Source: Verrucomicrobiota bacterium (GTDB lineage: Bacteria; Verrucomicrobiota; Verrucomicrobiia; CAIQCK01). From it: DNA of 64,000 nt. A program made the position numbers and the translations under genes. Shown here one piece after another: positions 15,053 through 50,723 of the stretch; position 1 is the stretch's first letter; every line of letters starts with the position of its first letter. The notes beneath the pieces are model-generated. The model was not told the origin of the DNA. It searched no databases and was given only the letters and a program-made list of their open reading frames with translations. The stretch covers positions 94,731 through 158,730 of the forward strand of contig JAPLTX010000061.1 in the NCBI GenBank assembly GCA_026397915.1, read 5' to 3'.

Positions 15053-15079
15053 CGTAACTACCCGAATAGTTTGAAACGG
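15053..15079 (+). repeat. left terminal inverted repeat of prophage (CGTAACTACCCGAATAGTTTGAAACGG)
   Basis: reverse complement matches right end CGGCACTAACCAGAATGTTTGAAACGG with ~20/27 identity; core CCGTTTCAAAC resembles Mu end-site consensus YGTTTCAYT. Confidence 0.7.
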
Positions 15080-15138
15080 GGGTAAATAGGCGGCGTAACG
15101 CGGGACGCGGAAAGGGTAAAAAGCTAGAATCGGCGGGG

Positions 15139-16629
15139 CTATGGCGTAACGGCCGCCGGACGGCCGCCAGACGGCCGCGGAGGGGCCGCCAAGGGGGCGA
15201 AGACCAGCGTGTCGGCCTCGTGAGCCAGGATTCGGATGTGGCCGCGCAGCAGGTCAGTGTAGGCAGTGCGGCGGGCGTCGTGGAGAATGATGACGCCGCC
15301 GGGGGCCAGCACTTGGATGGCCGCCAGCGCGCACTCGACGCGGCGGCGACCGTCTATGAAAATCAACTGTGGTGCCGGGCGGATGTCCAATGCGCGGTGC
15401 GCATAACGGGAGACGCGGCGGTTGACCGGCTCCAGAAGGGTATCCCATCGGGCCGCGCAAGGCGGCACAGAGGCGCGGGCGCGTTGAAGCCAGGTGTCGT
15501 CGTGCTCAATGCTGGTGAGCCGTGCGCCGGACGGGAGGCGGCCGAGGATGACACGACTGGAAGCGCCTGGCCCCCACTCCAACACGGAGGTGGGCTTGAT
15601 GCGGTCGAGCCATTGCTCAAGGACGGGGACGAAGCTGTGCATGGAGTTGGTCGGCACATTGGAGATTGGAGATTTGAGATTTGAAACCGGAGACAACGGG
15701 AAATGTGTCTTGAGCGCGAGTGTCTCCAGCATTGCCAGCAGCGCGTCGTCGGCAACGCGCTTGGACGCGCGCTCGAACAACTCGTGATCAAGGCGGGCCT
15801 CGGCTGTGAGCGCGCGGTCCGCGATGGCGTCGGCGGGGCCGCAACCGCATCGGTGAAGCCAGGGGATGATCCGCTCGCGAAACGCTGTCTCGCCGCAGAC
15901 CGCGTAGTAGGCGTGCCAGACGTTCATCCAGGCGGGGACAATGTTGTTGAAGCGGTATTGGCCGCCGTCCGAGTTGCGGGAAGGGTGCGTGGTGCCGAAG
16001 AACTCGTGGCCGAGCATCACGTCGTCAAGGCTCACCACGGGCACGCCGGACATGAAGGCTCGCAGGGCCATGCCGCGCTCTTGCGAGCCGTGACGGCCGG
16101 CGAATGTATTCCACCCACCGACGCGCGCGTAGGTGTCGCGCGACATGCAGAGGCCGACGCCGACCATCAGCGGGGACGGTTCCGGCGCGCGCCGGTATTG
16201 GGAAGTGCTGAAGGGGAGTATCGCCTCGTTGTTCGGATGAAAGACGCGCTGGCTGCCGGGCAGCCGGTAGGCGCGCCAGTTGGCGTCGTAGGCGATGTTG
16301 GCGAGCGCGGGGCAGACGATGGCTCCGCTCTCGACGGCGCGGCCCGCCAGCGCACGGATGTCGCCGGCCAGCACGGTTTGGTGGGCGTCAACCCAGAGCA
16401 GCGCGTCGCCCGTGGCGGCGGCCGTCGCGGCGAGTTTGGCCTTGCCACATCCGAGAGGCTTGTCGTGTTTGACGACGCGAACGCCGTCCGGCAGCGCATC
16501 GCAGGAACCGTCCGTTGTTCCGTCGGCGCACACGATGACTTCATCCGCGCCGGCGGCAAGGAAGTCGCGGCACGTCGCCGTGACGCGGCCCCCCTCGTTG
16601 AATGTGTTGATGATCACAGAGAGTTTCAT
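15139..16629 (-). CDS. bifunctional family-2 glycosyltransferase / class I SAM-dependent O-methyltransferase (family 3-like) fusion
   Basis: N-term KLSVIINTFNEG...CADGTTDGS...WVDAH GT2 motifs; C-term VLEWGPGASSRV...LIFIDG methyltransferase motifs; last gene before prophage left end. Confidence 0.7.
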   Translation of the reverse strand: MKLSVIINTFNEGGRVTATCRDFLAAGADEVIVCADGTTDGSCDALPDGVRVVKHDKPLGCGKAKLAATAAATGDALLWVDAHQTVLAGDIRALAGRAVESGAIVCPALANIAYDANWRAYRLPGSQRVFHPNNEAILPFSTSQYRRAPEPSPLMVGVGLCMSRDTYARVGGWNTFAGRHGSQERGMALRAFMSGVPVVSLDDVMLGHEFFGTTHPSRNSDGGQYRFNNIVPAWMNVWHAYYAVCGETAFRERIIPWLHRCGCGPADAIADRALTAEARLDHELFERASKRVADDALLAMLETLALKTHFPLSPVSNLKSPISNVPTNSMHSFVPVLEQWLDRIKPTSVLEWGPGASSRVILGRLPSGARLTSIEHDDTWLQRARASVPPCAARWDTLLEPVNRRVSRYAHRALDIRPAPQLIFIDGRRRVECALAAIQVLAPGGVIILHDARRTAYTDLLRGHIRILAHEADTLVFAPLAAPPRPSGGRPAAVTP

Positions 16630-16638
16630 CTTTATATT

Positions 16639-17937
16639 TCAGGTTGGCTGTTGAGGATTCGCGGCCGCTCCGGGTGTTTCCCCACCGGGGCCGACGGCAA
16701 CTACACGCATCCAGGCTTGCGTCCATTCGAGCGGCAAACCGTTCCAGGCTTCCGTAGCGCCTGGCGTCACACCCGTTCCCCACGGCGTGTAATTCACTCC
16801 GTCTGTTGATTGCTCGGCGTTCAAAGATGTCGCCCCCGCGGAAAGCGAAGGCCACGTTACATCCATCCGCCAACTGTCCGGCGGGTCGCCAACAAGCGCG
16901 AGGTTGGTAATCGTTGGCGCATCGGGTGCCGATGGCGGCGGCGCTGTGGACGTTGGCGTTGGCGTCGGTGGCGGGGCCGTTGGGGTTGGTGTGGCCGATG
17001 GACTCGTTGGGGTTGGCGTTGCCGATGGACTCGTTGGGGTTGGCGTGGCCGATGGACTCGTTGGGGTTGGCGTGGCCGATGGACTCGTTGGCGTTGCCGA
17101 TGGACTCGTTGGGGTTGGTGTGACCGGCGGGGCCGTTGGGGTCGGCGAGGGGACTGTCGGTGTGGCGGTTGTGGTCGGTGTGGGCGTGGCATCAACAATG
17201 GTCATGCTCTCGGATTGTTGGACGTGATTGTTGTTCGCGTCGTAGAGGTGCGCGGTCCAAGAGTAAGCCCATGTGGGGCCGGGGCCGGCCGGGCGGGTTG
17301 GCGTGCCGGTGATGGAGCCGTTAAGATTGAAGCTCAGACCTGGAGGCAGCGGGCCGGCGTCCATCATCCACGTGTAGGGTTCCGTTCCGCCCGTGCCGGT
17401 GTGCTGGAGCGACACGGGATTGCCAACGGTTTGGTTGGGCCAGACACCGCCGTTCGTGATCGCGAGTTGGCCGCCGCTGGAAGGCGTGGGCGGCGAGGAA
17501 GGCGTGGCCGTTGGCGATCCACCGCCGCCACCGCCACCGGTCCCCGTCGGGGTTGGGGTTGCGGAGGGTGAGGCCGTTGCGGTTGACGATCCGCCGCCAC
17601 CGCCCGTCCCTGTCGCGGTCGGGGTTGCTGAAGCCGAGGCCGTTGGCGAGGCCGACGCGGTCGGTGTTGCTGTTGGCGCGGCGATGATGCGAACGCCCTC
17701 CGGTTGTTTGATGGTGTTGCCCTCGGCGTCCGTGGCGCGAATCCACCACTGGAAACGGCCCGCGACGGTCGGCGTGCCAGAGAGCACGCCAAGAAGGCTC
17801 AGTGTCAAGCCGGGCGGAAGCGAGCCATAGATTTTCTGCCACGCGTAAAGCGGCTGACCGCCCGTGGCGGCGTGGCTGAATGAATACGCGGCCCCGACGT
17901 TGCCGTCGGGCAGATGGTGTTTGGATGTGATGCGCAT
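16639..17937 (-). CDS. phage tail fiber-like protein with He_PIG (putative Ig) domains and PT-rich linkers
   Basis: LPDGNVGAAYSF...PPGLTLS...GTPT motif repeated; long PTPTSPSATPTPT linker encoded by 27-bp tandem repeats. Confidence 0.5.
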   Translation of the reverse strand: MRITSKHHLPDGNVGAAYSFSHAATGGQPLYAWQKIYGSLPPGLTLSLLGVLSGTPTVAGRFQWWIRATDAEGNTIKQPEGVRIIAAPTATPTASASPTASASATPTATGTGGGGGSSTATASPSATPTPTGTGGGGGGGSPTATPSSPPTPSSGGQLAITNGGVWPNQTVGNPVSLQHTGTGGTEPYTWMMDAGPLPPGLSFNLNGSITGTPTRPAGPGPTWAYSWTAHLYDANNNHVQQSESMTIVDATPTPTTTATPTVPSPTPTAPPVTPTPTSPSATPTSPSATPTPTSPSATPTPTSPSATPTPTSPSATPTPTAPPPTPTPTSTAPPPSAPDAPTITNLALVGDPPDSWRMDVTWPSLSAGATSLNAEQSTDGVNYTPWGTGVTPGATEAWNGLPLEWTQAWMRVVAVGPGGETPGAAANPQQPT

Positions 17938-17958: not shown

Positions 17959-19055
17959 TTAAGGCGCGGTCGGTGTCGGCGTCGGCGGTGGGGCCGTTGG
18001 GGTTGGGGTTGCCGACGGACTCGTCGGGGTTGGTGTGACCGACGGACTCGTCGGGGTCGGTGTGGCCGACGGACTCGTCGGGGTTGGCGTGGCCGACGGA
18101 CTCGTCGGGGTCGGCGTGGCCGACGGACTCGTCGGGGTCGGCGAGGGGACCGTCGGTGTGGCGGTTGCGGTTGGTGTGGGCGGCAGCGCGGCGAGCACGA
18201 CCATGCCAACGGGATCGTCGGCGTGGTTGCCCTCGGCGTCGGTGGCGCGAACCCACCAGGTGAAATGGCCGGTGGTCGTCGGCGTGCCGGCGAGCGTGCC
18301 GTCGCTGTTGAGCGCGAGGCCCGGCGGCAGCGAGCCGGAAAGCAGCGACCAGGTGTAGGGCGCGACGCCGTCCACGACCGCGAACGCGAAGCTGTAGGCG
18401 GAGCCGACGTTGCCATCGGGCAGGTAGAAGTCGGACGTGACGCGGAAGCCGGTGCCAGTCGTTGGCGTGGGCGTGGGCGTTGGCGTCGGTGTGGCGGTGG
18501 CCGTCGGGGTCGGCGTTGGCGTGGCGGTCGCGGTCGGTGTCGGCCCTGTGCTTGTGGGCGTCGGCGTCGGGATAAATTGAACCGTGCCGAAATCGGTTGT
18601 CTCGTCGAAGCCGGCGGCAAAGACGGTCACATCTTCCTTGAGCCAGGTCTCGATGCGGCCGTCGGGCCGCTTCGCGCCGAACATGACGGTGGACGGCCTT
18701 GACTCCAAGCCCAGGAGCCACTCGGCGGAGACGGCCTCCGGGAACTTGAGGACGCATTCGAGCTTGCCGCCGCGTTTGATGAAGTCGTTTTTGAACGCGA
18801 CAAAGCCCGGATCGTCGAGCGTGCCGGTGGGGACGCCCTCGCCCGCGATGACGCCGACGACGAACTTGTAGCCCGCAACGTTGCGGTAGATGAACTTGTT
18901 GCCGGTCGTCAACGGGTTGGGCGAGAGCGGATGGATGCGCCACTCGACGGCGCTACCCTGAAAGAACTCGATGCGGTCGTAGGTTGGCTCGGCGTCGTCG
19001 TTGATGCCGGTGACGCGCTTGCCGGTGGCGGTGTTGAGATAGATGTCACGCATAG
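17959..19055 (-). CDS. phage tail fiber protein with He_PIG Ig-like domains and PT-rich linkers
   Basis: start MRDIYLNTATGKR chosen inside ORF 17959..19611; YLPDGNVGSAYSFAFAVVDGVAPYTWSLLSGSLPPGL motif; paralogous to 16639..17937. Confidence 0.5.
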
Positions 19056-19711
19056 AGGTAACTGTCCAATCCGAGGAGGTTGCTGTTGGCGTCGAGGAAC
19101 AAGAGCGTGCGGCGGCGCACGTCCTGGCCGGTCCACGCAAGGTGCCGGTCCACGGGCGCGATTTCGTGGCAGAGGTGCCAGTAGGGGGCGACGACGCGGA
19201 GATGCTGGCGGACGACGTTGCGGGGCGTGAAGACGTAAACGTCCTCGCCGCGCTCCTGGCTGAGCGTGGCGCTGTAGGCGGCGGTGATGTAACCGATGTA
19301 GAGAAAGCCCTTGAGCGTGGACGGCCAGTTGCCCTGGCTTGGGAACCACGGCCAGCCGGCGTCGGCAGGCGTCGGGCCGTCCTTGAGAAGCGCGGACACT
19401 GGCAGCACGCCGAAGTCGCCGCCGAGCTGCAGGAGCACCTCGGCCCAGACGTGATGGACGATGTTACCCTGCACCGGCACGGTGACAACGGCGTGCAACG
19501 GCTGTTCGCTCTCGCTGTCGTTGGAGGGCTTGATGTCCTTCGTGGCGTCGAGTGTTTCGCCAACGGCGATGTAGCCACGGCGCACGGCGAAGGCGGCCTG
19601 ATTGTTCGCAAGCGTCACGCCGTCGGGCGCGCTGCCGGGGACGATCTTCCAGGGGAAGCTCCACTCAAGCCTGTTGAGGCGGCAGCCCTCGGTGTCGTAG
19701 CGTCCGCTCAT
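19046..19711 (-). CDS. phage tail/baseplate-associated protein (hypothetical)
   Basis: 221 aa, located between tail tip genes and fibers; no recognisable motif. Confidence 0.3.
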   Translation of the reverse strand: MSGRYDTEGCRLNRLEWSFPWKIVPGSAPDGVTLANNQAAFAVRRGYIAVGETLDATKDIKPSNDSESEQPLHAVVTVPVQGNIVHHVWAEVLLQLGGDFGVLPVSALLKDGPTPADAGWPWFPSQGNWPSTLKGFLYIGYITAAYSATLSQERGEDVYVFTPRNVVRQHLRVVAPYWHLCHEIAPVDRHLAWTGQDVRRRTLLFLDANSNLLGLDSYLYA

Positions 19712-20088
19712 TGGGGGGAAACCTCGGTAGAGTGTTGGAGCGGTGGAGTATTGGAGTGATGGAGCGGCCAGCCCTTGCCTTGCGAGCGCGCTGGATGTTT
19801 ACAGCCCCAGCGCGGAAGATTCTCTTCGTAGCCGGAAAGGTTGCGGATGGAGCCGCCGCCGTTGACGCGGCAGCCGCAGAGAACGCAGGACACATTCCCG
19901 TTGAGCGTGAGCCGGTATTCACACACGGCGCAGACAGCCTCGCGCGCTTGCCGAACATCGGCCGGCACGTGGCGGGCGGTCAGCCATGCCTGCGTGAACG
20001 ACGCGGCCATGCCGATCATCTTGCGGAGCGGGCGAAGCGTCGCGGGCGGCGCGGCGGGCGGGGCGTTGGTGTCGTCAATGATGATCAT
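19708..20088 (-). CDS. small cysteine-rich phage protein (CAVCEY...CVLCGC zinc-ribbon-like)
   Basis: start MIIIDDTNAPP overlaps stop of upstream gene (ATGA-type coupling); 7 Cys. Confidence 0.3.
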   Translation of the reverse strand: MIIIDDTNAPPAAPPATLRPLRKMIGMAASFTQAWLTARHVPADVRQAREAVCAVCEYRLTLNGNVSCVLCGCRVNGGGSIRNLSGYEENLPRWGCKHPARSQGKGWPLHHSNTPPLQHSTEVSPQ

Positions 20089-20090
20089 GG

Positions 20091-21587
20091 CTAGTCCCCC
20101 GTCGGCGGCAGGACGATTCCGGGGCACGCCGGCTCCCACTCGTCGGCCTCAAAGCCAATCAGAAGCTTGCCGCTGTTGAGGTCGCGCATCAGTTGCAGCA
20201 ACACTTCCGCGTTGGGGCCGATCATCTCCTCGGCCTGGTCCGCGAGAGCTTGCGACGCCTGTTTGTTCTCCCACCACACATACCACTGGCCTTCGACAAA
20301 CGGGCCGCCGGTCTGCTGGCCGTCGCGCCAGCACACATACTGCCGCTCCAGCCAGTTGTGGAGGTCGAGTTGTTCGAGGTCCCATCCCGTGGCCTCGCTA
20401 AAATCGCTCCGCACCTGGTCGTAGGTTTTGCACTTCCACAGATACCAACTCGCCGTGTCGTTGAACGGTTCCTTGCAGATGGAGACCTTGTATCGAAACG
20501 CCGAGATCGAATAGGTGGGAATGCCGCACAACACGTTGCCGCACCACGGATCGCGCGGATTGAAAACATGATCGTCGTGCTGACGGAACCATTCCGGGTG
20601 ATCGGTCCACGGGTCGGCCAGGCAGGGGCCGCAACCACACGCGGACGGATCGGCCGGCGCCTGCGGCCAGCCGGCGAGGATCGGCTCAGGGAAATAGAGC
20701 AGCGGTTTCTTCACGAACGCCGCGCGCGGCGTGGCGTAGGCTTCGCCAAACAACCGCTCGGTGATTTCCTCGGTCGCGGGCAGTCGCACACCGACGTTGC
20801 CGACGACGTGCTGGTGAATGGTGAACGACTTTTCATCATCGCTGCCGGTGTCAATGCGGCCCACGACGAGCCGGGCGTCGCCGCGGCCGTAGCCGGGGTG
20901 GTCGAGCTGCTTCCAGTTGGCCGACGGATCGGATTGCGCGAACTGTTTCCAGTCGTGGCCGAACACGTAGTCGCCGATGTTGAGGTCCTGCCATTGCTCC
21001 TCGCCGCCGACCTGTGTCGCGGCCAGCGCGTGATACACGTAATCGGCCAGGCCGACGCTCTCGTCGTCGCCGTGCAGGACCAGCGGCCCGTAAAACACTT
21101 CCTTGAAGCCCGTGCGCCCCTCGGCGTATTGGAGGAGGCCGTCGCCGCCGAACTGCATGTGACCGCAGGCATTCTCCATCGGCTGCACGATGAAGATGGT
21201 GTAACCCTTCTTGTTGGCGGGCACGACGATCCTCTGCGGGCCGGCGGCGAAGAAGGTCGGGGTCGGGGACATGGTCTCGATGGTCATGCCGGCGTTGACG
21301 CCGAACGGCATCGAGCCGGAGACCCAGCCGGGCGCGACGACGAATGTCCGCCAATCGGCCGGCTGGGTCTCGCCAGACACGCGCTGCCATCGCGTGATCT
21401 GGAACTCGAACGGCGTGAACTTGCGCGGCTTGTCGGGCAGGATGTCAACGACAGTGCCCTTGGGGTAGCGCGAGACGCGAGTGCCGGGGCCGGAATGCAG
21501 CTCGCAGCCCTTGAGGTGCGAGAGGATGCGGCGCATGTCGGAGGCGCGGACGCGGTCGCCGGCTTGTGGATCGCGCGGCAGCGTCAT
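20091..21587 (-). CDS. phage tail tip / host-interaction protein candidate with Cys-rich C-terminal domain
   Basis: 498 aa from MTLPRDPQAG; follows tape measure and Dit-like gene; C-terminus CGCGPC...CGNVLCG...CWRDGQ. Confidence 0.35.
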   Translation of the reverse strand: MTLPRDPQAGDRVRASDMRRILSHLKGCELHSGPGTRVSRYPKGTVVDILPDKPRKFTPFEFQITRWQRVSGETQPADWRTFVVAPGWVSGSMPFGVNAGMTIETMSPTPTFFAAGPQRIVVPANKKGYTIFIVQPMENACGHMQFGGDGLLQYAEGRTGFKEVFYGPLVLHGDDESVGLADYVYHALAATQVGGEEQWQDLNIGDYVFGHDWKQFAQSDPSANWKQLDHPGYGRGDARLVVGRIDTGSDDEKSFTIHQHVVGNVGVRLPATEEITERLFGEAYATPRAAFVKKPLLYFPEPILAGWPQAPADPSACGCGPCLADPWTDHPEWFRQHDDHVFNPRDPWCGNVLCGIPTYSISAFRYKVSICKEPFNDTASWYLWKCKTYDQVRSDFSEATGWDLEQLDLHNWLERQYVCWRDGQQTGGPFVEGQWYVWWENKQASQALADQAEEMIGPNAEVLLQLMRDLNSGKLLIGFEADEWEPACPGIVLPPTGD

Positions 21588-21738
21588 TGCCTGGCCTCCG
21601 CGCTCTGCCCGCGGGGCGTGCGCGTGATGCGCACGGTGGGGCTGGAGAGCAACTGGAGCGATCGGGCGTAGGCGAGCAACTGTCGCATCCAGGCTGCGCT
21701 GACCTTCTGGCCGGCTTTGGGAGGTGGGGGCGGCGTGA

Positions 21739-22572
21739 TCATCCCTCGTTGTCCACGTAGAGGTTGCGCGGCCAGTCGGCGTTGCCGGTGTATTCGCGCT
21801 CCTGGGCAAACACCTTGCTCGCCTCCTGCCTGGTGGCCGAGCCAGTGACTCGATAGACATAGCGCGACGGCGCTCGGGCGACCGATGGCGGCGTGACGAT
21901 CCGGTTGACCTGCGTGTCCTCGCCCGGCTCGGTGCGGTGGTAGGTTGTGACGGTGATGACCGGGATGGCCACCTGGAAGCTGTCGAGTCCGATCAGGAGA
22001 CGGTTGTAAAGTTCCTTGGCGGGATTGCCCTCGATGCTGCAACCGATGACCGGGCCTTGCGATGTATAGACAACTTCGCCCGCGCTGCCGCCGAGGTCGG
22101 GCGTGGTTTTCTGCTCAAGCGCCTCCTCGATCTTGCGGCGCTGATCGGGCGTGACGCCCTTGTAGGGACGCGCGAGCCGGATGTCCACGGTGATGAAGCT
22201 CCAGACGATGTCGCGCTTGGTGTCGGGCAGTTGCTCCTCGCCGGCCGTGTTGACGCGGTCGTCAAAGAAAAGCGTCAGCTCGCCAAAACCCGCCTCGGTT
22301 GGGACCAGTTCCATGTTGCAGGAAGAGTGGTTGCCAAACTCGGTTGGCCATGTGCGCGTGTCGCGGAACTTGAGGTAGAGCGCGCGCAGTTCGGCGTAGG
22401 TGCCGGCGAACTTGCGCACGGCCTGCGAGGTGAACTCTTCGGCGGTGACGCTCGCCTTGTAGGTGGGGTTGCCGCCAACCTCCAACTGACGCCAGTTAAC
22501 GCCGCCGGGCGCGGTCTTGACCCGGATTTTATTCGACCCGGACGTAAACGACCCTGGGAGTTCACTCGCCAT
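21739..22572 (-). CDS. phage distal tail protein (Dit)-like, hypothetical
   Basis: ~277 aa directly downstream of tape measure protein; position-based. Confidence 0.3.
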   Translation of the reverse strand: MASELPGSFTSGSNKIRVKTAPGGVNWRQLEVGGNPTYKASVTAEEFTSQAVRKFAGTYAELRALYLKFRDTRTWPTEFGNHSSCNMELVPTEAGFGELTLFFDDRVNTAGEEQLPDTKRDIVWSFITVDIRLARPYKGVTPDQRRKIEEALEQKTTPDLGGSAGEVVYTSQGPVIGCSIEGNPAKELYNRLLIGLDSFQVAIPVITVTTYHRTEPGEDTQVNRIVTPPSVARAPSRYVYRVTGSATRQEASKVFAQEREYTGNADWPRNLYVDNEG

Positions 22573-23884
22573 AGACAGCACTCGCGTCGAAGTTGGGGTT
22601 GAAGAGTTGGCCACCGAACTTCTTCATCACGTCGAGCATGGCCTTCTGCACGATGACCTCTTCGCGCATGTAACGGATGGCGTCGCGATACCAGGCGTCC
22701 TGCGCACTCGCGCCCGTGGCCGCCTTGGTCTGGCGTCCGACGACGCCGGCCAGCGCCGTGATCGGGTCCTTCTTGATCTTGTAGAGGTATTGCTCCAGAG
22801 AAGAGCCGCCCGCGCCGTCCGCGCCTTGGGAGCCGGGCTTCTTCGCACCGCCCGGATGGTCCGGCAATCCCTGGCCGAGTTTGTCGGCCCACTTCCGGGA
22901 CTCCCCTTCCAGCCCGGCCGTGTCCTTTGGTTTGACGCCCTTGAACATTCCGAAGCGTTGGGCAAATTCGAGGCCGAAGTTATAGAGCTTCGCCAAAGCC
23001 TCTTCCACCAGCGCGGCGATGGCGCGGTGCAAATAGTAAATCTTGGCGGTCAGTTCGCCGACCCATTCGCCCGCGCGGGAGAGGTCGAGCTTGGCGATCT
23101 TCTCCAGCAGCGGCGTGGCGATGTCGGCCCAGCGGGAGGCGACGCCGGTGAAGAATCCGCCCGCGCCCTTGAGGTTGCTCCAGGCGCGCGCGGAGAGCTT
23201 GTAATACTTCTCGAACTTTTCCGCGTTCTCGGCCATCAGCTTGCCCTTGTTGCCGAGGTCCGCGGTGAGCGCCTTCATGGCGTCGTCGTCGGTAAAGACT
23301 TCGATGAGCGCCGCGCCGGATTTGCCGAAGACCTTCATTGCGGCGTTGGCGCGCTGGGTCGGGTTCTCGATCCCGGCGATGGCCGCGCCAAGCGCCTTGA
23401 ACTGTTCGGCGGGCGACATGGTCAGCAACCGCTCCTGTGAGAGGCCGAGCTGCGCGAGCATCTTGTTGGTCGGCTCGCCGCTCTCGGAGACGCCCGCCAC
23501 CGCGCGCGCCATGATGGAAAAGACGGAAGTAATCGCCCCGGCTTCCATGCCAGCGATCTTGAAGGCGTTGCTGAGCCGGACGGCATTCTCCGTCGTCTCT
23601 CCGAGGATGGTCGCGATGCCCTTGATCTCGTTGCCTTCCTTGCCGGCTACTTTGAGAGACAATCCAACCAACGCCAGCACGACTGCCAAGCCCTTTGCTG
23701 GGCCACCGATTTTGGTGAGCATGTTTCCAAAGCCGCCAAGCTGCGTGGCGGCCATGCCCAGCCCTTGATTGGCGAGGCCCATGATTTTTGCGTTGAGTCC
23801 TCCGGTGGCGGCGTTCGCCGCGGAGGCGCTGGCGACGTATTGGGCCGTGCTCAGACCGAGCGAATATTGAAGATCAGCAGCCAT
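22562..23884 (-). CDS. phage tail tape measure protein
   Basis: 440 aa from MAADLQYSLG; Ala/Gly-rich helical repeats, typical TMP N-terminal LQYSLGLS..A..GGL motif; long ORF in tail module. Confidence 0.55.
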   Translation of the reverse strand: MAADLQYSLGLSTAQYVASASAANAATGGLNAKIMGLANQGLGMAATQLGGFGNMLTKIGGPAKGLAVVLALVGLSLKVAGKEGNEIKGIATILGETTENAVRLSNAFKIAGMEAGAITSVFSIMARAVAGVSESGEPTNKMLAQLGLSQERLLTMSPAEQFKALGAAIAGIENPTQRANAAMKVFGKSGAALIEVFTDDDAMKALTADLGNKGKLMAENAEKFEKYYKLSARAWSNLKGAGGFFTGVASRWADIATPLLEKIAKLDLSRAGEWVGELTAKIYYLHRAIAALVEEALAKLYNFGLEFAQRFGMFKGVKPKDTAGLEGESRKWADKLGQGLPDHPGGAKKPGSQGADGAGGSSLEQYLYKIKKDPITALAGVVGRQTKAATGASAQDAWYRDAIRYMREEVIVQKAMLDVMKKFGGQLFNPNFDASAVYGE

Positions 23885-24043
23885 GTCAGAACTCCAGCGC
23901 GGCGAGGATTTGAAGGTCGGCGAATCCGAGGCCCTTGTGGCCGCGTCGCTCGGCGGCGGCTTGCGTCCACACAAAGCACTGGATCAGCGGCCACGTGTTC
24001 ATGACGAGGATCGGGTCTTGTTTGTATTCGGCGGCGCAGGTTT

Positions 24044-27103: not shown

Positions 27104-27165
27104 GGTCGTTTCCTTATTGGGGTGTTGAAATAATGGAGTGATGGATGATGGGTTGTGGGTTGCGG

Positions 27166-40150: not shown

Positions 40151-40423
40151 TCAGGGGTTTGGAAGTGTGCCGAGCAACGCGGCGAATCCGCCCGCTCTCC
40201 AGGCTTTGGCAATCTGCTTGATGTGCCGCGGATTCGTGTCATTCGCGTAACACGCGCCGGCCAGCGTGTCGCCCGCGACCATCTCGTCGTAGATGCCTTG
40301 CAGGAGTTTCAACCGGCCGATGGCGACCTTTAATTGATGGTTCGTCGGGCCAACCGGACGCCGGGGGACTTCCGCGCTCACAAACAATCGCCGGAGAACT
40401 TCTTTACGCCGGTCGCCCTTCAT
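40151..40423 (-). CDS. small hypothetical early protein
   Basis: 90 aa between ParB-like gene and transposase. Confidence 0.25.
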   Translation of the reverse strand: MKGDRRKEVLRRLFVSAEVPRRPVGPTNHQLKVAIGRLKLLQGIYDEMVAGDTLAGACYANDTNPRHIKQIAKAWRAGGFAALLGTLPNP

Positions 40424-41265
40424 CGCGCCTCCTCGACTTTGCGGATGGAGCTTTTGAAGAACTTCATGTCGTCGGGTTCGAGGCCCGCCAGCGCCTGAGC
40501 CAGCCGGGCGAGTTTCTCGCGCCGCATGGTTAGGTTGGTGATCTTGGCAATGTAGGGAATGCGGTTGCTGATCGTGCGGACCATGTCATCCCACAAGAGC
40601 ATCTGCTGATGAACAACCCGCTTCTTGCCCTTCGTCGCTTCCCGTCCGGCCACCGCGGCGAGGATTTGCTGAAAGCCGGCCTTGCCTCCAAGCAGCAGCG
40701 GCTCGTATTCAGCCTTGATGTCAGGGCGGGCCTTGAACAGCTTGTGTATCTTCCCCGCGAGGCCGATTACGTCTGTCGAAATGCCCAGCCTGGAGGATAC
40801 GTCAGCCTGGGTTTTGCACCCTTCCACCCCCCGGAAGCCTAATTTTTCGGCTTTCGAGGTTTCTTGGGCTTTTTGGCCATTTAAGTTCGCCAAACTGCGT
40901 TTTCGGCTTTCGGCGAAAATCGGCTCAAGAAGGGTGTAGAGGAGGTAGGCGAGGGCGCTTTTGCTGAAGTGCCGGCGGGCCATCAGGCTCTCGCCGACGA
41001 TGGTGGCGGACTCGCCATCGCCGACCTGACGGACGGGCACTTCGGAGAGTCCGGCGGCCCGCGCCGCCCGGCTCCGGTGCCGGCCATCCACGATCCGGTT
41101 CTTGCTGTCAATCAGCACCGGATAGTCCAAGCCGCGCGCGCGGATGCTGGCGATCATGGCCAGGAAGTGCGGATCGTTCTCGGCGAGCATCGGGCCGAGG
41201 TCGGCCGTGGGATGGTGGGTGAGTTGATCCAGATTCATCATGACGATCTTGTTCGGTGTCTCCAT
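40420..41265 (-). CDS. ParB-like nuclease-domain protein
   Basis: 281 aa from METPNKIV; ...DYPVLIDSKNRIVDGRHRSRAARAAG ParB/Srx box II-like motif. Confidence 0.6.
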   Translation of the reverse strand: METPNKIVMMNLDQLTHHPTADLGPMLAENDPHFLAMIASIRARGLDYPVLIDSKNRIVDGRHRSRAARAAGLSEVPVRQVGDGESATIVGESLMARRHFSKSALAYLLYTLLEPIFAESRKRSLANLNGQKAQETSKAEKLGFRGVEGCKTQADVSSRLGISTDVIGLAGKIHKLFKARPDIKAEYEPLLLGGKAGFQQILAAVAGREATKGKKRVVHQQMLLWDDMVRTISNRIPYIAKITNLTMRREKLARLAQALAGLEPDDMKFFKSSIRKVEEAR

Positions 41266-41342
41266 GTTCTTCTTTCCTTTTGGGGTTGGTTGTTGGCAGT
41301 GACTGCGGCAAAAGTTGAGAGCTGAAAGCTGAAAGCTGAGGG

Positions 41343-41558
41343 TTAAGAGTTGGGGGCGGGGTTGGTTGGAGTGTTGGAGTTGTGGAGTGATGGAGTGTTG
41401 GCGGCCTCTCCAAACCATTCGCATCCGCAGCCGGCCTCGCGGCACTCGCGCTCGAAGCAATCGTGCTTGTAGCGGTCGTGGCCGCAGACGCAGGGGCGAA
41501 GCAGCGCGGCGCTGCCGGGAGGAAGATGGTCGGCGATGATTTGAAACCCCGTCTTCAT
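41343..41558 (-). CDS. small Cys/His-rich hypothetical protein
   Basis: PCVCGHDRYKHDCFERECREAGCGCEW; uncertain. Confidence 0.2.
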   Translation of the reverse strand: MKTGFQIIADHLPPGSAALLRPCVCGHDRYKHDCFERECREAGCGCEWFGEAANTPSLHNSNTPTNPAPNS

Positions 41559-42025: not shown

Positions 42026-42398
42026 CGGCTCAACTCCTTTTCGATGCGGTCGAGTTCGCCGCTGATAACCGCGACGCCCCGCCGGATGGAGGCCAGCGCA
42101 TCGGACGCCGCACGATGAGAGCAGAGGCGGCAACGCTCTGCTGGGGGCGCAATGCAATGTTCCTTGCGAACTTCGGCATCGAACTTGGTGCTGATAATGG
42201 CCCATCCGAAGATCGGCGGGAGACTGCCGTCTGAGGGAACAAAGAGTCTCGACCAACACTTGTGGCAAAATGAGTTCCGCGATTCTCCTCGCAGATAACA
42301 ACCGGGAATCCCGGCCAGCGTGGTTAGCGAGTCCAACCGTGGATTCGTGCGGCTCGTCTCCAAACCGCAGAGCCAGCAACGTAGTTGAGTTTTCATCG
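42022..42398 (-). CDS. zinc-finger hypothetical protein (CWLC...CHKC...CRLC)
   Basis: 125 aa from MKTQLRCWLCG; ATGA overlap with Ner-like stop. Confidence 0.3.
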
Positions 42399-42575
42399 TC
42401 CAATCTCCTTTTCCAGCGCCGCGAGAATCTCCTGCGAGCGGCGGTCTGAGCGGTGGCCGTGTAGCGCGCGGCTGACCTGCGAGCGGTTGAACCTGTGCGC
42501 CCGGCTCCACTTGGCCAGCGAGCTTCGGCGGGAAACCAGCGACCCTTTCAAAACGTCTGGATCAATAACGGCCAT
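42393..42575 (-). CDS. ner: Ner/Nlp-like DNA-binding protein
   Basis: 60 aa MAVIDPDVLKGSLVSRRSSLAKWSRAHRFNRSQVSRALHGHRSDRRSQEILAALEKEIGR matches Ner family pattern D..VI.AL...G.SL..LSR..G....VS.AL.G......EII..AL. Confidence 0.5.
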   Translation of the reverse strand: MAVIDPDVLKGSLVSRRSSLAKWSRAHRFNRSQVSRALHGHRSDRRSQEILAALEKEIGR

Positions 42576-42681
42576 TTTGGTGTTGCCTTTCGCGGCTTCC
42601 GGCGGGACTCTCAGCGAAGTTGTAACAGGTCGTGCCATTTGACGGGCACCCTTTTAAGCAAATTTGCTGGCGCTGTCAACA

Positions 42682-43125
42682 ATGAATAGCAATTTTGTTA
42701 AAGATTTTTCTGACCGTCTGTCGGGGTTGATGGCCGAGCGGGGATTCACGCAACAACAACTCGCCGACAAGATCACGTCCTCGCAGACGAGCGTGTCGCA
42801 CTGGCTTCGAGGAAATGTCCCTTCCAGGCGAGCACTCAAGACACTCGCGGACTGTTTCAGTGTGAACATCGAATGGCTGCGATCCGGCCAAGGTTCGCGC
42901 GTGCCAGCGTCTGTTGTTCGCGAGACCGTAGAGGTCGCATTGGGTGGAGAAATAAAAGACCATAAGCTCATGCTCGAAACGTTGATCGGTGGAATGCAGA
43001 CGCCGCAGCTTCAGGACTTGGTGATAGAGCAAACGCGGCTCGGAAATGTGGGTTTAGTGTTGTTGCTTGGAACAGAGTTGAGTAAACGTAGGGACGTGAA
43101 GCGCAGAACGGAGACAAGGAAATGA
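42682..43125 (+). CDS. XRE-family (Cro/CI-type HTH) transcriptional regulator, candidate prophage repressor
   Basis: RGFTQQQLADKITSSQTSVSHWLRGNVPSRRALKTLADCFSVNIEWL; divergent from ner-like early operon. Confidence 0.6.
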   Translation: MNSNFVKDFSDRLSGLMAERGFTQQQLADKITSSQTSVSHWLRGNVPSRRALKTLADCFSVNIEWLRSGQGSRVPASVVRETVEVALGGEIKDHKLMLETLIGGMQTPQLQDLVIEQTRLGNVGLVLLLGTELSKRRDVKRRTETRK

Positions 43126-44250: not shown

Positions 44251-44334
44251 CGCGCGGCACCCTTTTGGTGAAACGATGGCCACGATGGCCACGCTGCTTG
44301 GCGGTCGGCGCGCGGGGGCGCGTAGGCTGGCCGC

Positions 44335-44769: not shown

Positions 44770-44806
44770 CCCCCAACGGCGCGCCCAGCGGTCGCGCCCT
44801 ACCTAC

Positions 44807-46296: not shown

Positions 46297-46302
46297 AAAA
46301 CA

Positions 46303-47013
46303 ATGAGCGACACAACCTACAAGGGCAAGATCGGCCGGCTGCCGCGCGCGATGCGCGACGAGGTGTGCCGCCGGATGCGGGACGGCGATAGCGACAGGAG
46401 GATTCTCGTCTGGCTGAACGCCGACGCCGAGGCGAAGAAGCGGATGGAGACCTACTTCGACGGCCAGCCGCTGAACGGAAGCAACATGAGCGAGTGGCGC
46501 GCGGCCGGCTACCAGGACTGGAAGCGGCAGCAGGACCGCGACGCGCAAACCGAGAAGCTTTGCAAGTGGGCGATGAATGCCGTGGACGGCAAGCCCGGCG
46601 ACAAGGCGAGCGCCATCGCGGCGGGCCAGTTGTGCTCCGCGCTGGAGGATTTTGATGTCGAGAAGTTGAAGGATTTGCTGGCGACCGATCCGAGCAATCA
46701 TTCGGAGATTATCAAGAGCCTGGCAAGGCTGCGCACGAGCGACGCGTCGGTGAAGAACGCGGAGGTGAACGCGGTAAAGTTGCAGCAGGCCGAGGAAGCG
46801 CTCCGCCAGGCCAACGAGCGGCTCGTGATGGAGAGGGGGGAGTTTGAAATCCGTTACTGCCAGGGAGTCCTGAAGGGAATCGCGGACGCCGAGGCGCATC
46901 GCATCGCGGGGCTGAACATCTCCAACGACGAGAAGATTGCGTTGATGCGCAAGCACTACTTCGCGGACGTGGACGCGCTCCAAAAATCCGGCGCGGTGAA
47001 GCTGCCGGATTAA
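46303..47013 (+). CDS. putative terminase small subunit (Mu gp27/DUF3486-like)
   Basis: 236 aa; basic N-terminal DNA-binding-like region GRLPRAMRDEVCRRMRDG; directly upstream of terL. Confidence 0.45.
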   Translation: MSDTTYKGKIGRLPRAMRDEVCRRMRDGDSDRRILVWLNADAEAKKRMETYFDGQPLNGSNMSEWRAAGYQDWKRQQDRDAQTEKLCKWAMNAVDGKPGDKASAIAAGQLCSALEDFDVEKLKDLLATDPSNHSEIIKSLARLRTSDASVKNAEVNAVKLQQAEEALRQANERLVMERGEFEIRYCQGVLKGIADAEAHRIAGLNISNDEKIALMRKHYFADVDALQKSGAVKLPD

Positions 47014-47018
47014 CCCCG

Positions 47019-48713
47019 ATGAAGGCCAAGAAACAGCGCCGGCTCTATGAGAACGTGGCGATGGTGATGGTGCGCGAGCGCCGCCACTGCGCGCTGCTCT
47101 GGACCCGGCGCGGTCGCAAAAGCACAACGCTCGGCTCCATCGCCTTCGACGAAATGGCGGCGGCCGACGACCGGACGGTGATCCAAGCCAGCGCGTCGTT
47201 GCTGCTCGGCAAAGAGGGCGTCGGCGCGGCGCTGTCGGCCCTCGAACAGGCCATGATCGTCAAGGCCGAGGCCGAGGCGGTGCGCGACGTGTTCTCGTCG
47301 GGCGCGGAGGATCGCGACCTGAACTTCCAGGTGGCGGCTCGGCCCAAAGACGGCCAGCCCGGCGACTCCAAGGTCATGAAGGGGTTGACGGAAGACGATT
47401 TTGCCGGCCTCTACCGGGCGAGCCGCCTGGAACTTCGCCTCTACTTTGACCGTTCGCGCTACTCTCGGCTGCTGATCATCGCGCCGAATCCGGCGACGGC
47501 GCGCTCGTGGCGCGGGACGGTGTTGCGCGACGAGGTCGGCTACACGCCGCCCGCGCTGGAAACCGATTTGCAGGTCGCGATGGACCCGATGATGCGGGAC
47601 ACGCCGGACCTGAAGCTCGTCTATGGCTCCAACCTGCCGGGCGACAGCCGGCACCCGTGGTTCGCGATGACGCTGCCGCGGGAAATCAAGGCGGCAAACG
47701 AGGAAGATGAGTTCCCGGCGAACGCGTCCGGTCATCTCTTTGTTAGCCAGACCGGACTTCTTGTGCATCGCGTGGCGCTCAAAGACGCTTATCAGGCCGG
47801 CCACCAACTCTTCGACGACAAGGGCCTGCCGATGTCGTATGAGGACTGCGCGAAGTCGCCGCAGTTCCGCGTGGGCTGGGACATCTCCTACGCGCTCAAC
47901 CACAAGACGGGCGGCGCGGGCGCGGTGGACCTGATTGCGCTGGTGAACGCGCAGCGCGCGGGCGTCGGCGAGTGTGCTTTTGTTTACGTGGAGAATGAAG
48001 GCGACTGGCAGCGCGCGCTGTCATTGCTCCGCGGCCACCTGACCAACGGCAGGGTGAACCTCGGCTTGGACGTGGCCAGCACGGCGGAAGAGAAGAGCAA
48101 CCCGTCGAGCATCACGGTGACGGAAGAAACGTCGGGCATGTATTACCAGCGGCTCGTCGCCGTCTTCAAAACGAAACACCGGGCGGTCGTGAGCCAGCGG
48201 TTGAAGGATGTCTGCGCGGTGGTCGCCGGCCGTAGCGACGGCGGGCGGGTTCAGAAGTTGAGCATTGACGCCGGCAACGAGCGAATGGCCGCCGAGGAAA
48301 CCGCGAACGATTTGCGCGGCGTCGTTACCGTCGAGCTTGTCATTCCATCGGCAAGCATCCATCCGCCAGGCTACAGCGACTCGGTAAATTTCAAGACCTA
48401 TCAGAGCGACCTCTACAGCGACGGACTCAACAACGGCCTGATTGCGGTTCCGCCGGACGAATACATCAAGCTCGACCATTTGCTTCCGATCAAGGACATG
48501 GGCCGTTACACGTGCGCCGTGGACAGTGAGGGCAGGCACGGTGATTCGTTCGATTCCGGCAAGCAGTCCTACTACGGTTTTTATTCCAGCGGCGGCGCAG
48601 TTGAGGCCCACGCCGTCCGCGTCGGCGGGAATGTTTCCACGGCCCACACCGGCAGGAACAATCCGCTCGCGCCGCACTTCGACAAGGCAGGAGGTTCAAG
48701 ACTATGGATTTGA
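47019..48713 (+). CDS. terminase large subunit (Mu gp28-like)
   Basis: 564 aa; deviant Walker A WTRRGRKSTTLG; size/order terS-terL-portal. Confidence 0.55.
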   Translation: MKAKKQRRLYENVAMVMVRERRHCALLWTRRGRKSTTLGSIAFDEMAAADDRTVIQASASLLLGKEGVGAALSALEQAMIVKAEAEAVRDVFSSGAEDRDLNFQVAARPKDGQPGDSKVMKGLTEDDFAGLYRASRLELRLYFDRSRYSRLLIIAPNPATARSWRGTVLRDEVGYTPPALETDLQVAMDPMMRDTPDLKLVYGSNLPGDSRHPWFAMTLPREIKAANEEDEFPANASGHLFVSQTGLLVHRVALKDAYQAGHQLFDDKGLPMSYEDCAKSPQFRVGWDISYALNHKTGGAGAVDLIALVNAQRAGVGECAFVYVENEGDWQRALSLLRGHLTNGRVNLGLDVASTAEEKSNPSSITVTEETSGMYYQRLVAVFKTKHRAVVSQRLKDVCAVVAGRSDGGRVQKLSIDAGNERMAAEETANDLRGVVTVELVIPSASIHPPGYSDSVNFKTYQSDLYSDGLNNGLIAVPPDEYIKLDHLLPIKDMGRYTCAVDSEGRHGDSFDSGKQSYYGFYSSGGAVEAHAVRVGGNVSTAHTGRNNPLAPHFDKAGGSRLWI

Positions 48714-50341
48714 AAACATTTTTCAACGCGGACGCGGCGACCATCGTGAAGGCGATGGTTCCCGACGAAATGAAGCAGCGGCTCACGAAGTTCTTCGTGT
48801 CGCTGATTCCGCAAACGATCATCACGCGGTGGGACTCGCGCAAGCAGCCGGCAGCTGCCGCGCCGACGGTGGACGCGGACCAGTTGGCGACGATCATCCG
48901 CAACGCCGAGGCCGGCAACACCGACACGCTGTTCGCGCTCTACCGCGACCTGCTGTTCGACAGCCACATCCTGGGCGAATACCAGAAGCGGCTCGCGGCG
49001 ATGCTCGGCGACCAGATCAACGTCGGCCCTGAAGACGAGGAAAAGGAGGAAGATATTGACCTCGCGTGGCGCTGCCAGATGATGCTGAAGCGGAGCCGTG
49101 ACTGGTTTGACGCGATGCGCCACCTGCTGTCGTCGTGCTTCTGGCCGGTGGCCGTGGTGGAAAAGGTCTGGCGGCCGTCCACCGATCCGGCCTTGAAGTT
49201 TGAACTATGGCGGCTCGTCCCGGTGCCACATCACTTGCTCGATTTCACGACAGGCAAGCTGCGGATCGCGGACGTGGACGACAACGGCAACAAGACGGGG
49301 ACGTTTCACGACGCCGACCCGATGCGCTACATCGTCTGCCGCGTTCACATCATGCCCACCGACGACCACTGGGGCGGGCCGGGCCGGGCGGTGCTTTTCT
49401 GGTGGCTGCTGAAAACGCAAACGGTCGGCTGGTGGGCGCGCTTCCTCGAAAAATACCAGCCGGTGTATGTCGGCAAGTTCAACAGCGGCGACGAGCGCAG
49501 CCGGCTCGTGCTGGAAACGGCGCTGGCCGAGGCCGTCAAGCTCGGCGGCATCGTCATCAACAAGGAAACCGAGTTCTCCATCGAGCAGGCGCTCGCCCAG
49601 GGCAACCTCGACGGTTTCGAGAAGTTCTACAGCCTCTGCACGCGCGAGATCAGCAAGGTGTTGACCGGTCACGCGATGAGCCAGGAGTCGCCCGCGAGCG
49701 GACTGAACAGCGGCGAGGCCGGCGCAAAAGAACAGGTCCGCCAGGACATCCGTCAACTCGACAACATCCGGCTTGGAGCGGTGGTGGCACAGCAGTTGTT
49801 TGACGACTTCCGCCGATACAACAATCTGCCCGGCGGGCTGCCGGAAGTGTGGTGGGGCAGCGAGAGCTACACTGAAGCGAAGTCCACGGCTGAGGTGCTC
49901 CAGGCGACGAATCAGGCCGGGCTTGAGCCGACCGACGAGGCGATTCCGGTATTGTCGAAGCGGCTGGGGTTCAGTCTCCGCCGAAAGGCGGCCGCCGCCC
50001 CGCCGGCATTCGGCGCGCCGCTGGCCGCGCTGGCCGCGACGGGCACAGCGCCCATCGGCGGCACCGATCCGGCCGCCGAAGCGAATGCGGCGTTGATGGC
50101 CAAGGCCGCGCCCGGACTGGCCGCGGCATTTCGCGGATCACACGCGCCCATCCGGCTGGCGATTTTGGCGAGCACGTCGCCGGCAGACTTGGAGCAGCGG
50201 ATGCGGATGCTCTATCCAGACTGGAGCGAGAAGAAACTTCAACCGATGCTGGCCGACGCGACGGAGGCGTTCAACACGCTGGTGGCCAACGCGGCGGCCG
50301 GCGCTGTGAGGACGGCAGCGAGGCCAGGCGCGAGGCGATAA
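48704..50341 (+). CDS. portal protein (Mu gp29/DUF935-like)
   Basis: 545 aa following terL, overlapping by 10 nt; size consistent with Mu-like portal. Confidence 0.5.
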   Translation: MDLKTFFNADAATIVKAMVPDEMKQRLTKFFVSLIPQTIITRWDSRKQPAAAAPTVDADQLATIIRNAEAGNTDTLFALYRDLLFDSHILGEYQKRLAAMLGDQINVGPEDEEKEEDIDLAWRCQMMLKRSRDWFDAMRHLLSSCFWPVAVVEKVWRPSTDPALKFELWRLVPVPHHLLDFTTGKLRIADVDDNGNKTGTFHDADPMRYIVCRVHIMPTDDHWGGPGRAVLFWWLLKTQTVGWWARFLEKYQPVYVGKFNSGDERSRLVLETALAEAVKLGGIVINKETEFSIEQALAQGNLDGFEKFYSLCTREISKVLTGHAMSQESPASGLNSGEAGAKEQVRQDIRQLDNIRLGAVVAQQLFDDFRRYNNLPGGLPEVWWGSESYTEAKSTAEVLQATNQAGLEPTDEAIPVLSKRLGFSLRRKAAAAPPAFGAPLAALAATGTAPIGGTDPAAEANAALMAKAAPGLAAAFRGSHAPIRLAILASTSPADLEQRMRMLYPDWSEKKLQPMLADATEAFNTLVANAAAGAVRTAARPGARR

Positions 50342-50696
50342 ATCCCCCGCGCAATTCCGGCGTGTCGGCCCGGCCGTGTAGCCACGAAAGATAATCGTCT
50401 GAGTGAATCTTCAGTTTGATCAGCTTCAACCCCGCCCGCTTCGTGCGGCCGATGGGTGTCCAAACGACCCGACTGGCGTTGGAATGGCAACGCGTCCGCT
50501 AAGACCACGCGCTGGCCTCCTACGAAGGACGGTTCGCCACGTCGTAACCCTTTTGACGCGCGTCACTCCTTGAAGCCGCTCGACCCTTTTCAAACCCCCG
50601 TTTCAATCATTCCTGTCCGCCGCCGGCCGCCTCACACACCGTGTAACGCAACCCACACAAAAGTAGGCGGTTAAGACCATTTCAAACTAAATCAGA

Positions 50697-50723
50697 CCGT
50701 TTCAAACATTCTGGTTAGTGCCG
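50697..50723 (+). repeat. right terminal inverted repeat of prophage; second subterminal copy CCATTTCAAACT at 50677..50688
   Basis: CCGTTTCAAACATTCTGGTTAGTGCCG; tandem upstream near-copy 9 nt away, like multiple transposase binding sites (R1/R2). Confidence 0.7.

Follow-up and report, generated by a model that had tools for sequence, protein, structure and literature searches.

DDE transposition has its classical model in the transposable phages. Muvirus in the strict sense has a contractile tail, a single rightward late transcription unit, an invertible G segment and mom, and Tn7-type elements, which are not phages, make 5-bp target duplications and carry TG…CA tips. The target duplications are 5 bp for Mu and 6 bp for B3 (PMC8705779). 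A two-arm "B3-type" organization has been described by Olo Ndela et al. 2021 (PMC8705779), who also reported transposable prophages of Leptospira (the TG1, NN and TA-TA groups), found by BLAST searches seeded with proteins of known transposable phages and Tn552; a MuA-like fold was predicted for their TnpA, D-D-E is kept, the repeats are 6 bp long, and the tips are TA…TA in some of them. Here, we analyzed a stretch of 64,000 nucleotides from a Verrucomicrobiota bacterium (GenBank assembly GCA_026397915.1, contig JAPLTX010000061.1, positions 94,731 to 158,730 of the forward strand), hereafter called the window, for which an initial annotation had been made from the sequence. Positions 15053..50723 of the window (35,671 bp) are very probably an apparently intact Mu-type temperate phage of Verrucomicrobia that entered a sensor histidine kinase gene by DDE-type transposition. 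The element departs from the known transposable phages in its 4-bp target duplication, its tip bases and an inferred active-site residue. The coordinates of all features are listed in Table 1.

Precise insertion into a histidine kinase gene

The initial annotation held that the insert splits a kinase gene. The open reading frame (ORF) 13442..15085 lacks a HATPase_c domain in Pfam searches and reaches a stop codon 11 codons past HLFRSY, and a small ORF on the other side of the insert, 50785..51090, matches HATPase_c. When the two kinase parts were spliced in silico with one CTAT removed, a gene of 1977 nt with an unbroken frame was obtained, the product of which is 71% identical to the adjacent paralogue (51107..52552) and aligns with it without gaps through the junction, whereas retention of both CTAT copies breaks the frame. 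The proposed split was thus confirmed; a HAMP domain, which had also been assigned to the kinase, was not detected at E ≤ 0.001. The G+C content of the window is 62% as a whole and somewhat higher in the insert (0.62-0.68).

The annotation had further suggested looking for an uninterrupted copy in related metagenome data. A search with a degenerate pattern of the reconstructed junction yielded the Joint Genome Institute (JGI) metagenome contig Ga0154606_1416 (L049), which is approximately 94% identical to the window across 5,031 bp covering the junction, with two more blocks at 90-91%. Its junction reads TTCCGTTCCTATGGGCC, with a single CTAT, and its kinase is an uninterrupted protein of 657 aa in which all four domains are present. 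The base before CTAT is C and the base after it is G, and neither candidate 5-mer is duplicated. This locus represents a true empty site and shows that the insertion is real and precise. Because the element is missing from a 94%-identical genome, the insertion is recent on the scale of 6% divergence.

Ends of the element and a 4-bp target duplication

The two terminal inverted repeats share 20 of 27 positions, among which is the exact 11-mer GTTTGAAACGG, in agreement with the imperfect 27-bp repeats described initially. Read from the outside inward, the left end consists of CGTAACTACCCGAATA followed by GTTTGAAACGG and the right end, whose repeat occupies 50697..50723 with the tip CGGCAC, of CGGCACTAACCAGAAT followed by GTTTGAAACGG. 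Three additional copies of the core motif lie inside 140 bp of the right end. The ends of relatives were recovered by contig walking with chimeric queries of two or three anchor proteins; the portal alone gave no match as a query against the viral contigs. In UViG_3300009502_002963, whose transposase is 65% identical to that of the window, the left and right tips are TGTAAC… and TGAGAC…; they are CCGTAAC… and CCAGAG… in prophage-3, and CGTAAA… and CCTGAA… in prophage-4, of Geminisphaera colitermitum TAV2. For the phage designated P0169, the left tip was not recovered and the right tip, CAAGAC…, was set at the point where two contigs from different samples with an identical portal diverge.

Comparison of these ends revealed a conserved site, GWTTGRAAMGG, and the tips lie 16 nt outside it in the window and in both TAV2 prophage insertions. 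The same register is found at the P0169 end and in UViG_3300009502_002963, where both tips are exactly 16 nt ahead of GTTTGGACAGG or GTTTGAACAGC; it is seen at most ends of the four related elements. The sequence pattern suggests a 16-nt "ruler" between the binding site and the point of cleavage. Tips always begin with a pyrimidine, and their second base can be G, C or A. TG…CA is therefore not a conserved feature: the pairs are CG/CG in the window, CC/CC and CG/CC in TAV2 and CA in P0169, with TG/TG in UViG_3300009502_002963 only.

The repeats that abut the tips are CTAT in the window, TCCC in TAV2 prophage-3 and ATAA in TAV2 prophage-4. The duplication is exactly 4 bp in all three independent insertions and never 5, and when either tip was moved by up to 3 nt, no longer repeat appeared in any of them (the shift matrices peak at 4). 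This lineage makes 4-bp target duplications, a rule drawn from three insertions. The initial annotation was therefore right that CTAT occurs on both flanks and that a clean 5-bp duplication is not seen; the explanation is a genuine 4-bp duplication and not a degraded 5-bp one.

The three insertions are at unrelated sites, namely a kinase codon, an intergenic region downstream of a major facilitator superfamily (MFS) transporter gene and a palindromic repeat, with no common att core, and the P0169 phage has an identical portal with different flanks in two samples. In one of these samples it lies inside a repeat-rich, autotransporter-like gene of more than 1,500 aa (L044 3638-8212), and the other flank is in L045. 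Prophage-4 (L040 12676-12800; L046 15963-16050) sits at the centre of a host repeat, its flanks being mutually inverted copies that each terminate in the hairpin GCAGGCAAGATGCCTGC. The flanks of UViG_3300009502_002963 are a PAS-domain coding fragment on one side and the beginning of a gene for a di-haem cytochrome c on the other (L020 14188-14260; L018 12563-13364), and 72 nt of the contig remain beyond the left tip. Such unjoinable flanks are consistent with mixed host DNA on replicating or packaged phage genomes. One candidate end in G. colitermitum, an inverted match of 14 nt at L039 position 19175, was discarded since it lies inside a signal-peptide coding region, and in contig L043, with a portal 89% identical, the DNA past the portal differs and is uninformative for the end of the element.

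A transposase recognized by its predicted fold

A MuA-like DDE transposase had been named in the initial annotation. The 663-aa protein encoded at the position of MuA gave no match in Pfam, even with the threshold relaxed to E 5, or in PHROGs, NCBIfam and the PDB sequences (phmmer and profile searches), and an identical protein from a Verrucomicrobia metagenome-assembled genome is annotated as hypothetical at NCBI. We therefore turned to structure. An AlphaFold2 model built from 17 homologues (mean predicted local distance difference test score, pLDDT, of 71) shows at residues 223-352 the order strand-strand-strand-helix-strand-helix-strand-helix of an RNase-H-like core, followed by beta-rich domains; in MuA and TnsB, a beta-barrel comes after the catalytic fold. 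The top Foldseek match in the PDB was the MuA transpososome 4fcy (E 1.6e-13), and further matches were TnsB 7svw (3e-12), 8ea3, 9bw1 and 7pik, the MuA core 1bcm (3e-10) and 1bco, and retroviral integrases, with no unrelated structure below E 0.08. The predicted fold supports the assignment of this protein as a MuA/TnsB-fold transposase. The kind of enzyme given in the initial annotation thus stands, while its recognition by sequence models does not: of the models for Mu proteins, those for Gam, Phage_Mu_F, Mu-like_gpT and MuB-like proteins found their targets, and the transposase, which none of them matched, is identified by the fold comparison alone.

An exhaustive profile search returned 564 cluster representatives at E ≤ 1e-3, 204 of them below 1e-30. 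Judged by these searches, the transposase is a member of a family that is not catalogued, comprises at least 564 clusters (at 50% identity) and has no sequence-level link to described families. Among 44 members that are 24-40% identical to the window protein, Pfam matches were to N-terminal helix-turn-helix (HTH) families only, in some members, and a catalytic-domain model matched in 0/44. Residues G116, D227, D228, R248, Q249, L251, Y274, E299, W303, K338, E342 and G360 are invariant in these 44. In the model, D227 and D228 are in strand 1, E299 closes strand 4 (motif FRFERG) and E342 is in the helix following strand 5 (motif GKGGIE). A weak local hhalign alignment with the 44-sequence profile places D227 on D269 and E342 on E392 of MuA, and E299 three residues off D336. 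Because of the fold topology and the residue conservation, we infer that the likely catalytic residues are D227 (or D228), E299 and E342, a D-E-E instead of a D-D-E triad.

Mu-type genes in two divergent arms

The MuB-like ATPase, Gam, the F, G, I and T head homologues and the portal, all named in the initial annotation, were borne out by Pfam and PHROG matches, and so was the large terminase, TerL, by an hhalign comparison of its family alignment with Mu gp28 (probability 90.8%, E 1.2e-6), the single protein having no match to a hidden Markov model (HMM). As had also been stated, no tyrosine or serine integrase was found: integrase and resolvase families were without a match among the ORFs scanned. 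Profile searches gave no match to sheath, baseplate, Gin or Mom proteins. Regarding the tail, the tape measure protein was found as claimed, and a non-contractile tail is plausible given the lack of a sheath match. All recognizable prophage genes are full-length ORFs with a coding-type G+C content at third codon positions (GC3).

The genes form two divergent arms around a switch of a repressor and a Ner-like gene. One arm contains the repressor, membrane and lysis genes, terS, terL and the portal gene, and the other the Ner-like and ParB-like genes, A, B, Gam, lysis genes, F, G, I, T and the tail genes. In four loci with this split layout (L001/L004; L002, which is the same prophage as L006; L005/L046; and the P0169 phage), a terS-like gene, with terL and the portal gene where the contig reaches, lies on the repressor strand next to one tip, and the early-head-tail arm is divergent from it. 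This split of head and packaging genes was initially considered novel, an idea that was dropped, as it has been described for Leptospira transposable prophages (PMC8705779). In the distant relatives L009-L015 (IMG/VR; transposase 28-33% identical), gpI, the decoration gene and gpT are upstream of the transposase gene on the opposite strand and F and G are still downstream of it, so the point at which the head module is divided between the arms varies within the lineage.

The large terminase is a single ORF in the window (564 aa) and in the P0169 phage (536 aa), and is split into N- and C-terminal ORFs in three relatives (L004 193-954 and 1067-2140; L002 1828-2571 and 2789-3694; L046 11336-12250, 12247-13491 and 13488-14237). 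In G. colitermitum prophage-4, the terminase halves are separated by a gene for a C5 DNA methylase (PF00145).

Alternative explanations

Entry by Mu-like transposition, as proposed initially, is supported by the empty site, the Mu-type genes, the inverted-repeat ends, the lack of an integrase match and the predicted MuA/TnsB fold. Integration by a site-specific tyrosine or serine recombinase, for which no supporting point was found, is scarcely credible, with no integrase or resolvase match in any ORF scanned and three insertions at unrelated sites that share no att core. The source is a metagenome-assembled genome and the variable host ends of Mu-like phages confuse assemblers, so a phage contig misjoined into the kinase gene has to be considered as well, and non-contiguous flanks do occur in UViG_3300009502_002963. 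However, the two junctions coincide at the same four bases of a single codon-precise site, an uninterrupted contig from another sample is collinear with both flanks, and the family-wide 16-nt tip register is kept at both junctions, which makes such an artefact extremely unlikely. If the element were instead of the ordinary Mu/D3112 type with 5-bp duplications, the mismatch between CCTAT and GCTAT would be a later point mutation. Known phages make 5 bp (Mu) or 6 bp (B3) (PMC8705779), and shortening one tip by one base allows a 5-mer with 4/5 matching positions to be drawn in all three insertions. This would require a tip-adjacent mutation in all three independent insertions, however, and the distance between tip and site becomes unequal at the two ends (15 versus 16 nt); the empty site, C-CTAT-G, and the shift matrices also speak against it. 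A 5-bp duplication with one mismatch was rejected on the tip-shift analysis of the three insertions, and we regard the ordinary-type explanation as very unlikely.

Another possibility, which we consider unlikely, is that the prophage is fixed and no longer mobile, being transposition-dead from its CG tips or from other lesions. It has CG at both tips versus TG in the 65%-identical relative, and a similar 39-kb region was called defective in a Verrucomicrobia genome study (PMC6920513). On the other hand, the recognizable genes are full-length with coding-type GC3, the duplication is intact, as are both inverted repeats, the absence of the element from a 94%-identical genome indicates a recent insertion, and with C-initial tips at 4/4 TAV2 prophage ends and at the P0169 end, CG looks like natural variation. 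Several observations weigh against our interpretation of the insert as an intact transposable phage of the type described here. The CG…CG tips of the window differ from the TG…CA-type tips of the closest relative with both ends known, and the tip bases might matter for activity. For the left tip of TAV2 prophage-3, both CCGTAAC (16 nt from the site) and CGTAAC (15 nt) are possible readings, a 1-nt ambiguity, as its spacer may be missing one A. The flanks of UViG_3300009502_002963 are non-contiguous, so no duplication can be read from that element. The hhalign comparison of the transposase with MuA was weak, with a probability of 1.9%, or 20% (E 1e-3) with the 44-sequence profile, and the catalytic residues would follow from a medium-confidence model and its topology, not from residue-level superposition. 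Finally, late activators of the Mor/C type gave no match among the ORFs scanned, which did not include every small ORF; these activators are also absent from the Leptospira elements (PMC8705779).

Proposed mechanism and comparison with known systems

In the mechanism that we propose for this Mu-type phage, the transposase would bind the GWTTGRAAMGG sites, one terminal site and degenerate inner sites on the left and four on the right, and pair both ends in a transpososome. The AAA+ partner would select the target, the 3' ends would be joined to target phosphates with a 4-nt stagger (5 in Mu), and gap repair or replication would then produce the 4-bp repeat. During lytic growth, the phage would multiply by replicative transposition, with headful packaging by the Mu-type TerL and portal, and the 45-nt element located before both late blocks, described below, may co-ordinate them.

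The element fits the operational definition of a transposable phage by its size (such genomes have about 36-39 kb), transposase and ATPase, Gam, head and packaging genes, ends, dispersed sites with short duplications and the lack of an integrase match among the ORFs scanned. Like Escherichia phage Mu (Muvirus), it is approximately 36 kb long and has a predicted MuA-fold transposase followed by an AAA+ partner, Gam, Mu-type TerL and portal, F, G, I, T and gp36, multi-site inverted-repeat ends and a short target duplication. It differs from Mu in the 4-bp instead of 5-bp duplication, in tips that are not TG…CA, in the second catalytic residue, probably E where Mu has D, in a transposase that is undetectable by sequence, and in its two divergent arms with terS, terL and the portal gene beside the repressor; the ORFs scanned here gave no sign of a sheath, an invertible G segment, mom or Mor/C. 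With the siphoviral Pseudomonas phages B3 and D3112 it shares the transposable lifestyle and a probable non-contractile tail, and with the B3 type the two arms with regulators between them, but the B3 duplication is 6 bp (PMC8705779). Neither the transposase (E ≤ 1e-3) nor the portal (E ≤ 1e-10) had a tblastn match among 50,697 GenBank phage records. The Leptospira prophages resemble it in having been found by genome mining and in their predicted MuA-like fold, split layout and, in some of them, non-canonical tips, and the window element differs from them in host phylum, in its 4-bp repeat, in the putative D-E-E triad and in lacking a sequence link to known transposases. The TnsB/TniA transposases of Tn7 and CRISPR-associated transposons, with their TnsC/TniB partners, match almost as well as MuA in fold, and the ATPase of a relative matches TniB, but the context here is that of a complete phage.

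The literature surveyed reports 5- or 6-bp duplications and TG…CA or TA…TA tips, and no transposable phage with a 4-bp duplication came up in a full-text search, within incomplete literature coverage. A 4-nt stagger, variable tips and a putative Glu for the second Asp would make this element a natural comparison for studies of stagger geometry and cleavage-site choice. Because Pfam, PHROGs and NCBIfam all miss the transposase, such prophages can be labelled defective for want of integration genes; the Verrucomicrobia region mentioned above may be one mislabelled case (PMC6920513). Taken together, the data can be read more broadly, in a form that we judge evenly poised between right and wrong: a large MuA-fold transposase family (at least 564 clusters at 50% identity) missed by annotation pipelines, with a D-E-E site, a 4-nt stagger, no need for a CA-3' tip and cleavage fixed 16 nt from the binding site, would drive an entire transposable-phage lineage across Verrucomicrobiota and related phyla, the prophages of which are now scored as integration-less or defective. 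Two relatives are present in a named strain with a public genome, G. colitermitum TAV2, and the predictions are directly testable if this strain grows and induces. Such elements could become mutagenesis tools for a phylum with few genetic tools.

Gene content and repeated elements

Table 1 Features of the prophage and the interrupted kinase gene, in window coordinates
Feature	Position	Strand	Basis
Kinase, N-terminal part	13442..15052	+	Tll0287-like (formerly DUF3365), PAS_4 and HisKA_2 (Pfam); splice; intact orthologue
Target-site duplication, left copy CTAT	15049..15052		Splice, tip register, single CTAT in empty site
Left terminal inverted repeat, likely terminal transposase-binding site	15053..15079	+	Tip CGTAAC, 16 nt, then core GTTTGAAACGG
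Glycosyltransferase family 2 and methyltransferase domain fusion, likely cargo	15139..16629	-	Pfam Glycos_transf_2 5.7e-14, Methyltransf_24 2.6e-6
Two He_PIG immunoglobulin (Ig)-domain proteins, likely tail fibres	16639..17937 and 17959..~19050	-	Pfam He_PIG; Pro/Thr-rich linkers
Four unmatched ORFs, presumed distal tail/baseplate	19046..19711, 19708..20139, 20091..21860, 21739..22614	-	Position between tape measure gene and fibres
Tail tape measure protein	22562..23974	-	phrog_9483, 6.8e-12
Mu gp36-like head-tail adaptor	25651..26070	-	Pfam Phage_Mu_Gp36 9.6e-9, phrog_195
Major head protein, Mu gpT type	26162..27325 (start probably near 27103)	-	Mu-like_gpT 2.1e-40, phrog_371 4.5e-43
Virion structural/decoration protein	27166..27984	-	phrog_1731, 3.4e-23
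Mu gpI-type head maturation protease/scaffold	28051..29115	-	Pfam Mu-like_Pro 4.4e-16, phrog_328
45-nt element, copy 1	29129..29173	-	Upstream of gpI
Mu G-type virion morphogenesis protein	29233..29730	-	Pfam Phage_tail_S 2.3e-7, phrog_26
Mu F-type minor head protein	29736..30674	-	Pfam Phage_Mu_F 1.6e-13, phrog_220 7.4e-27
DUF5131/radical-SAM-like protein	31146..31877	-	Pfam DUF5131 1.5e-9; 61% identical in L001/L004
3D-domain peptidoglycan hydrolase, candidate endolysin	32175..32675 (putative start)	-	Pfam 3D 1.2e-10, peptidase PHROGs
Mu Gam-like DNA-end protection protein	34986..35513	-	Pfam Phage_Mu_Gam 3.9e-15, phrog_491 4.2e-20
MuB-like AAA+ transposition ATPase	36768..37871	-	Pfam AAA_22 1.6e-13, phrog_296 "DNA transposition protein" 1.5e-21
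Transposase, 663 aa (P0001), predicted MuA/TnsB fold	37889..39880	-	Predicted fold; no sequence-family match
ParB_N-like protein upstream of transposase	40420..41460	-	ParB-like PHROGs; Pfam ParB_N below cut-off; kept in relatives
Small HTH protein in Ner position, first early-arm gene	42393..42638	-	phrog_925 9.4e-7; position
HTH_3 repressor-type regulator, divergent from early arm	42664..43125	+	Pfam HTH_3 7.3e-9, phrog_4 "transcriptional repressor" 2.4e-15
45-nt element, copy 2	44259..44303	+	Upstream of first packaging-arm gene (44335)
Presumed small terminase subunit	46303..47013	+	Position only; 29-35% identical ORF at same position in relatives
Large terminase subunit, Mu gp28 type, 564 aa	47019..48713	+	hhalign of family alignment versus Mu gp28
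Portal, Mu gp29 type	48704..50341	+	Pfam Portal_Mu 4.6e-54, phrog_113
Right end, four GTTTGAAAYGG-like sites (50585, 50598, 50677, 50697)	50585..50723	-	Motif copies
Target-site duplication, right copy CTAT	50724..50727		Splice, tip register, single CTAT in empty site
Kinase, C-terminal part	50728..51093	+	HATPase_c

The glycosyltransferase-methyltransferase fusion gene, the last gene before the left tip, possibly functions in surface-polysaccharide modification. At the same position, relatives carry a D12-type DNA methylase (L020) or lipoproteins (L039, L040). In the two fibre-like genes, 27-nt tandem repeats (16951-17147, 17995-18143) encode Pro/Thr/Ser-rich linkers (…PTPTSPSATPT…), and near-identical blocks are common to both genes. 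The four ORFs that follow them had no match in Pfam, PHROGs or NCBIfam, and the presumed terS had no HMM match. The G. colitermitum counterpart of the MuB-like ATPase matches Pfam TniB. Several membrane or secreted proteins are encoded on the plus strand between the repressor and the presumed terS, and 382 bp separate the end of the portal gene from the right tip.

The 45-nt element ACCCTTTTGGTGAAACGATGGCCACGATGGCCACGSTGCTTGGCG occurs in two copies, found in the prophage only, which are 98% identical, are oriented alike with respect to the gene downstream and both adjoin (CAGCTCT)n heptamer repeats. It is a candidate for a shared late promoter or operator of the two divergent arms. An exact 22-mer, GGGCGCGACCGCTGGGCGCGCC, extended to 28-33 nt, is present at 31935-31956, 41572-41593 and 44778-44799, again in the prophage only, and could form a GC-rich hairpin. 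Furthermore, the short spacers directly before start codons contain many short arrays in which units of 7-8 nt (AGCTGAG, GTTGGAGT, GGGAGAT and others) are repeated in tandem. These arrays are frequent in the prophage (e.g., 27997-28044, 29187-29228, 30681-30712, 33794-33841, 34350-34385, 41880-41999, 44351-44376 and 46255-46300), are present in the host flanks (65-95, 988-1016, 57113-57134 and 62768-62812) and were seen in relatives too, and may be leader or translation-initiation elements typical of the host group.

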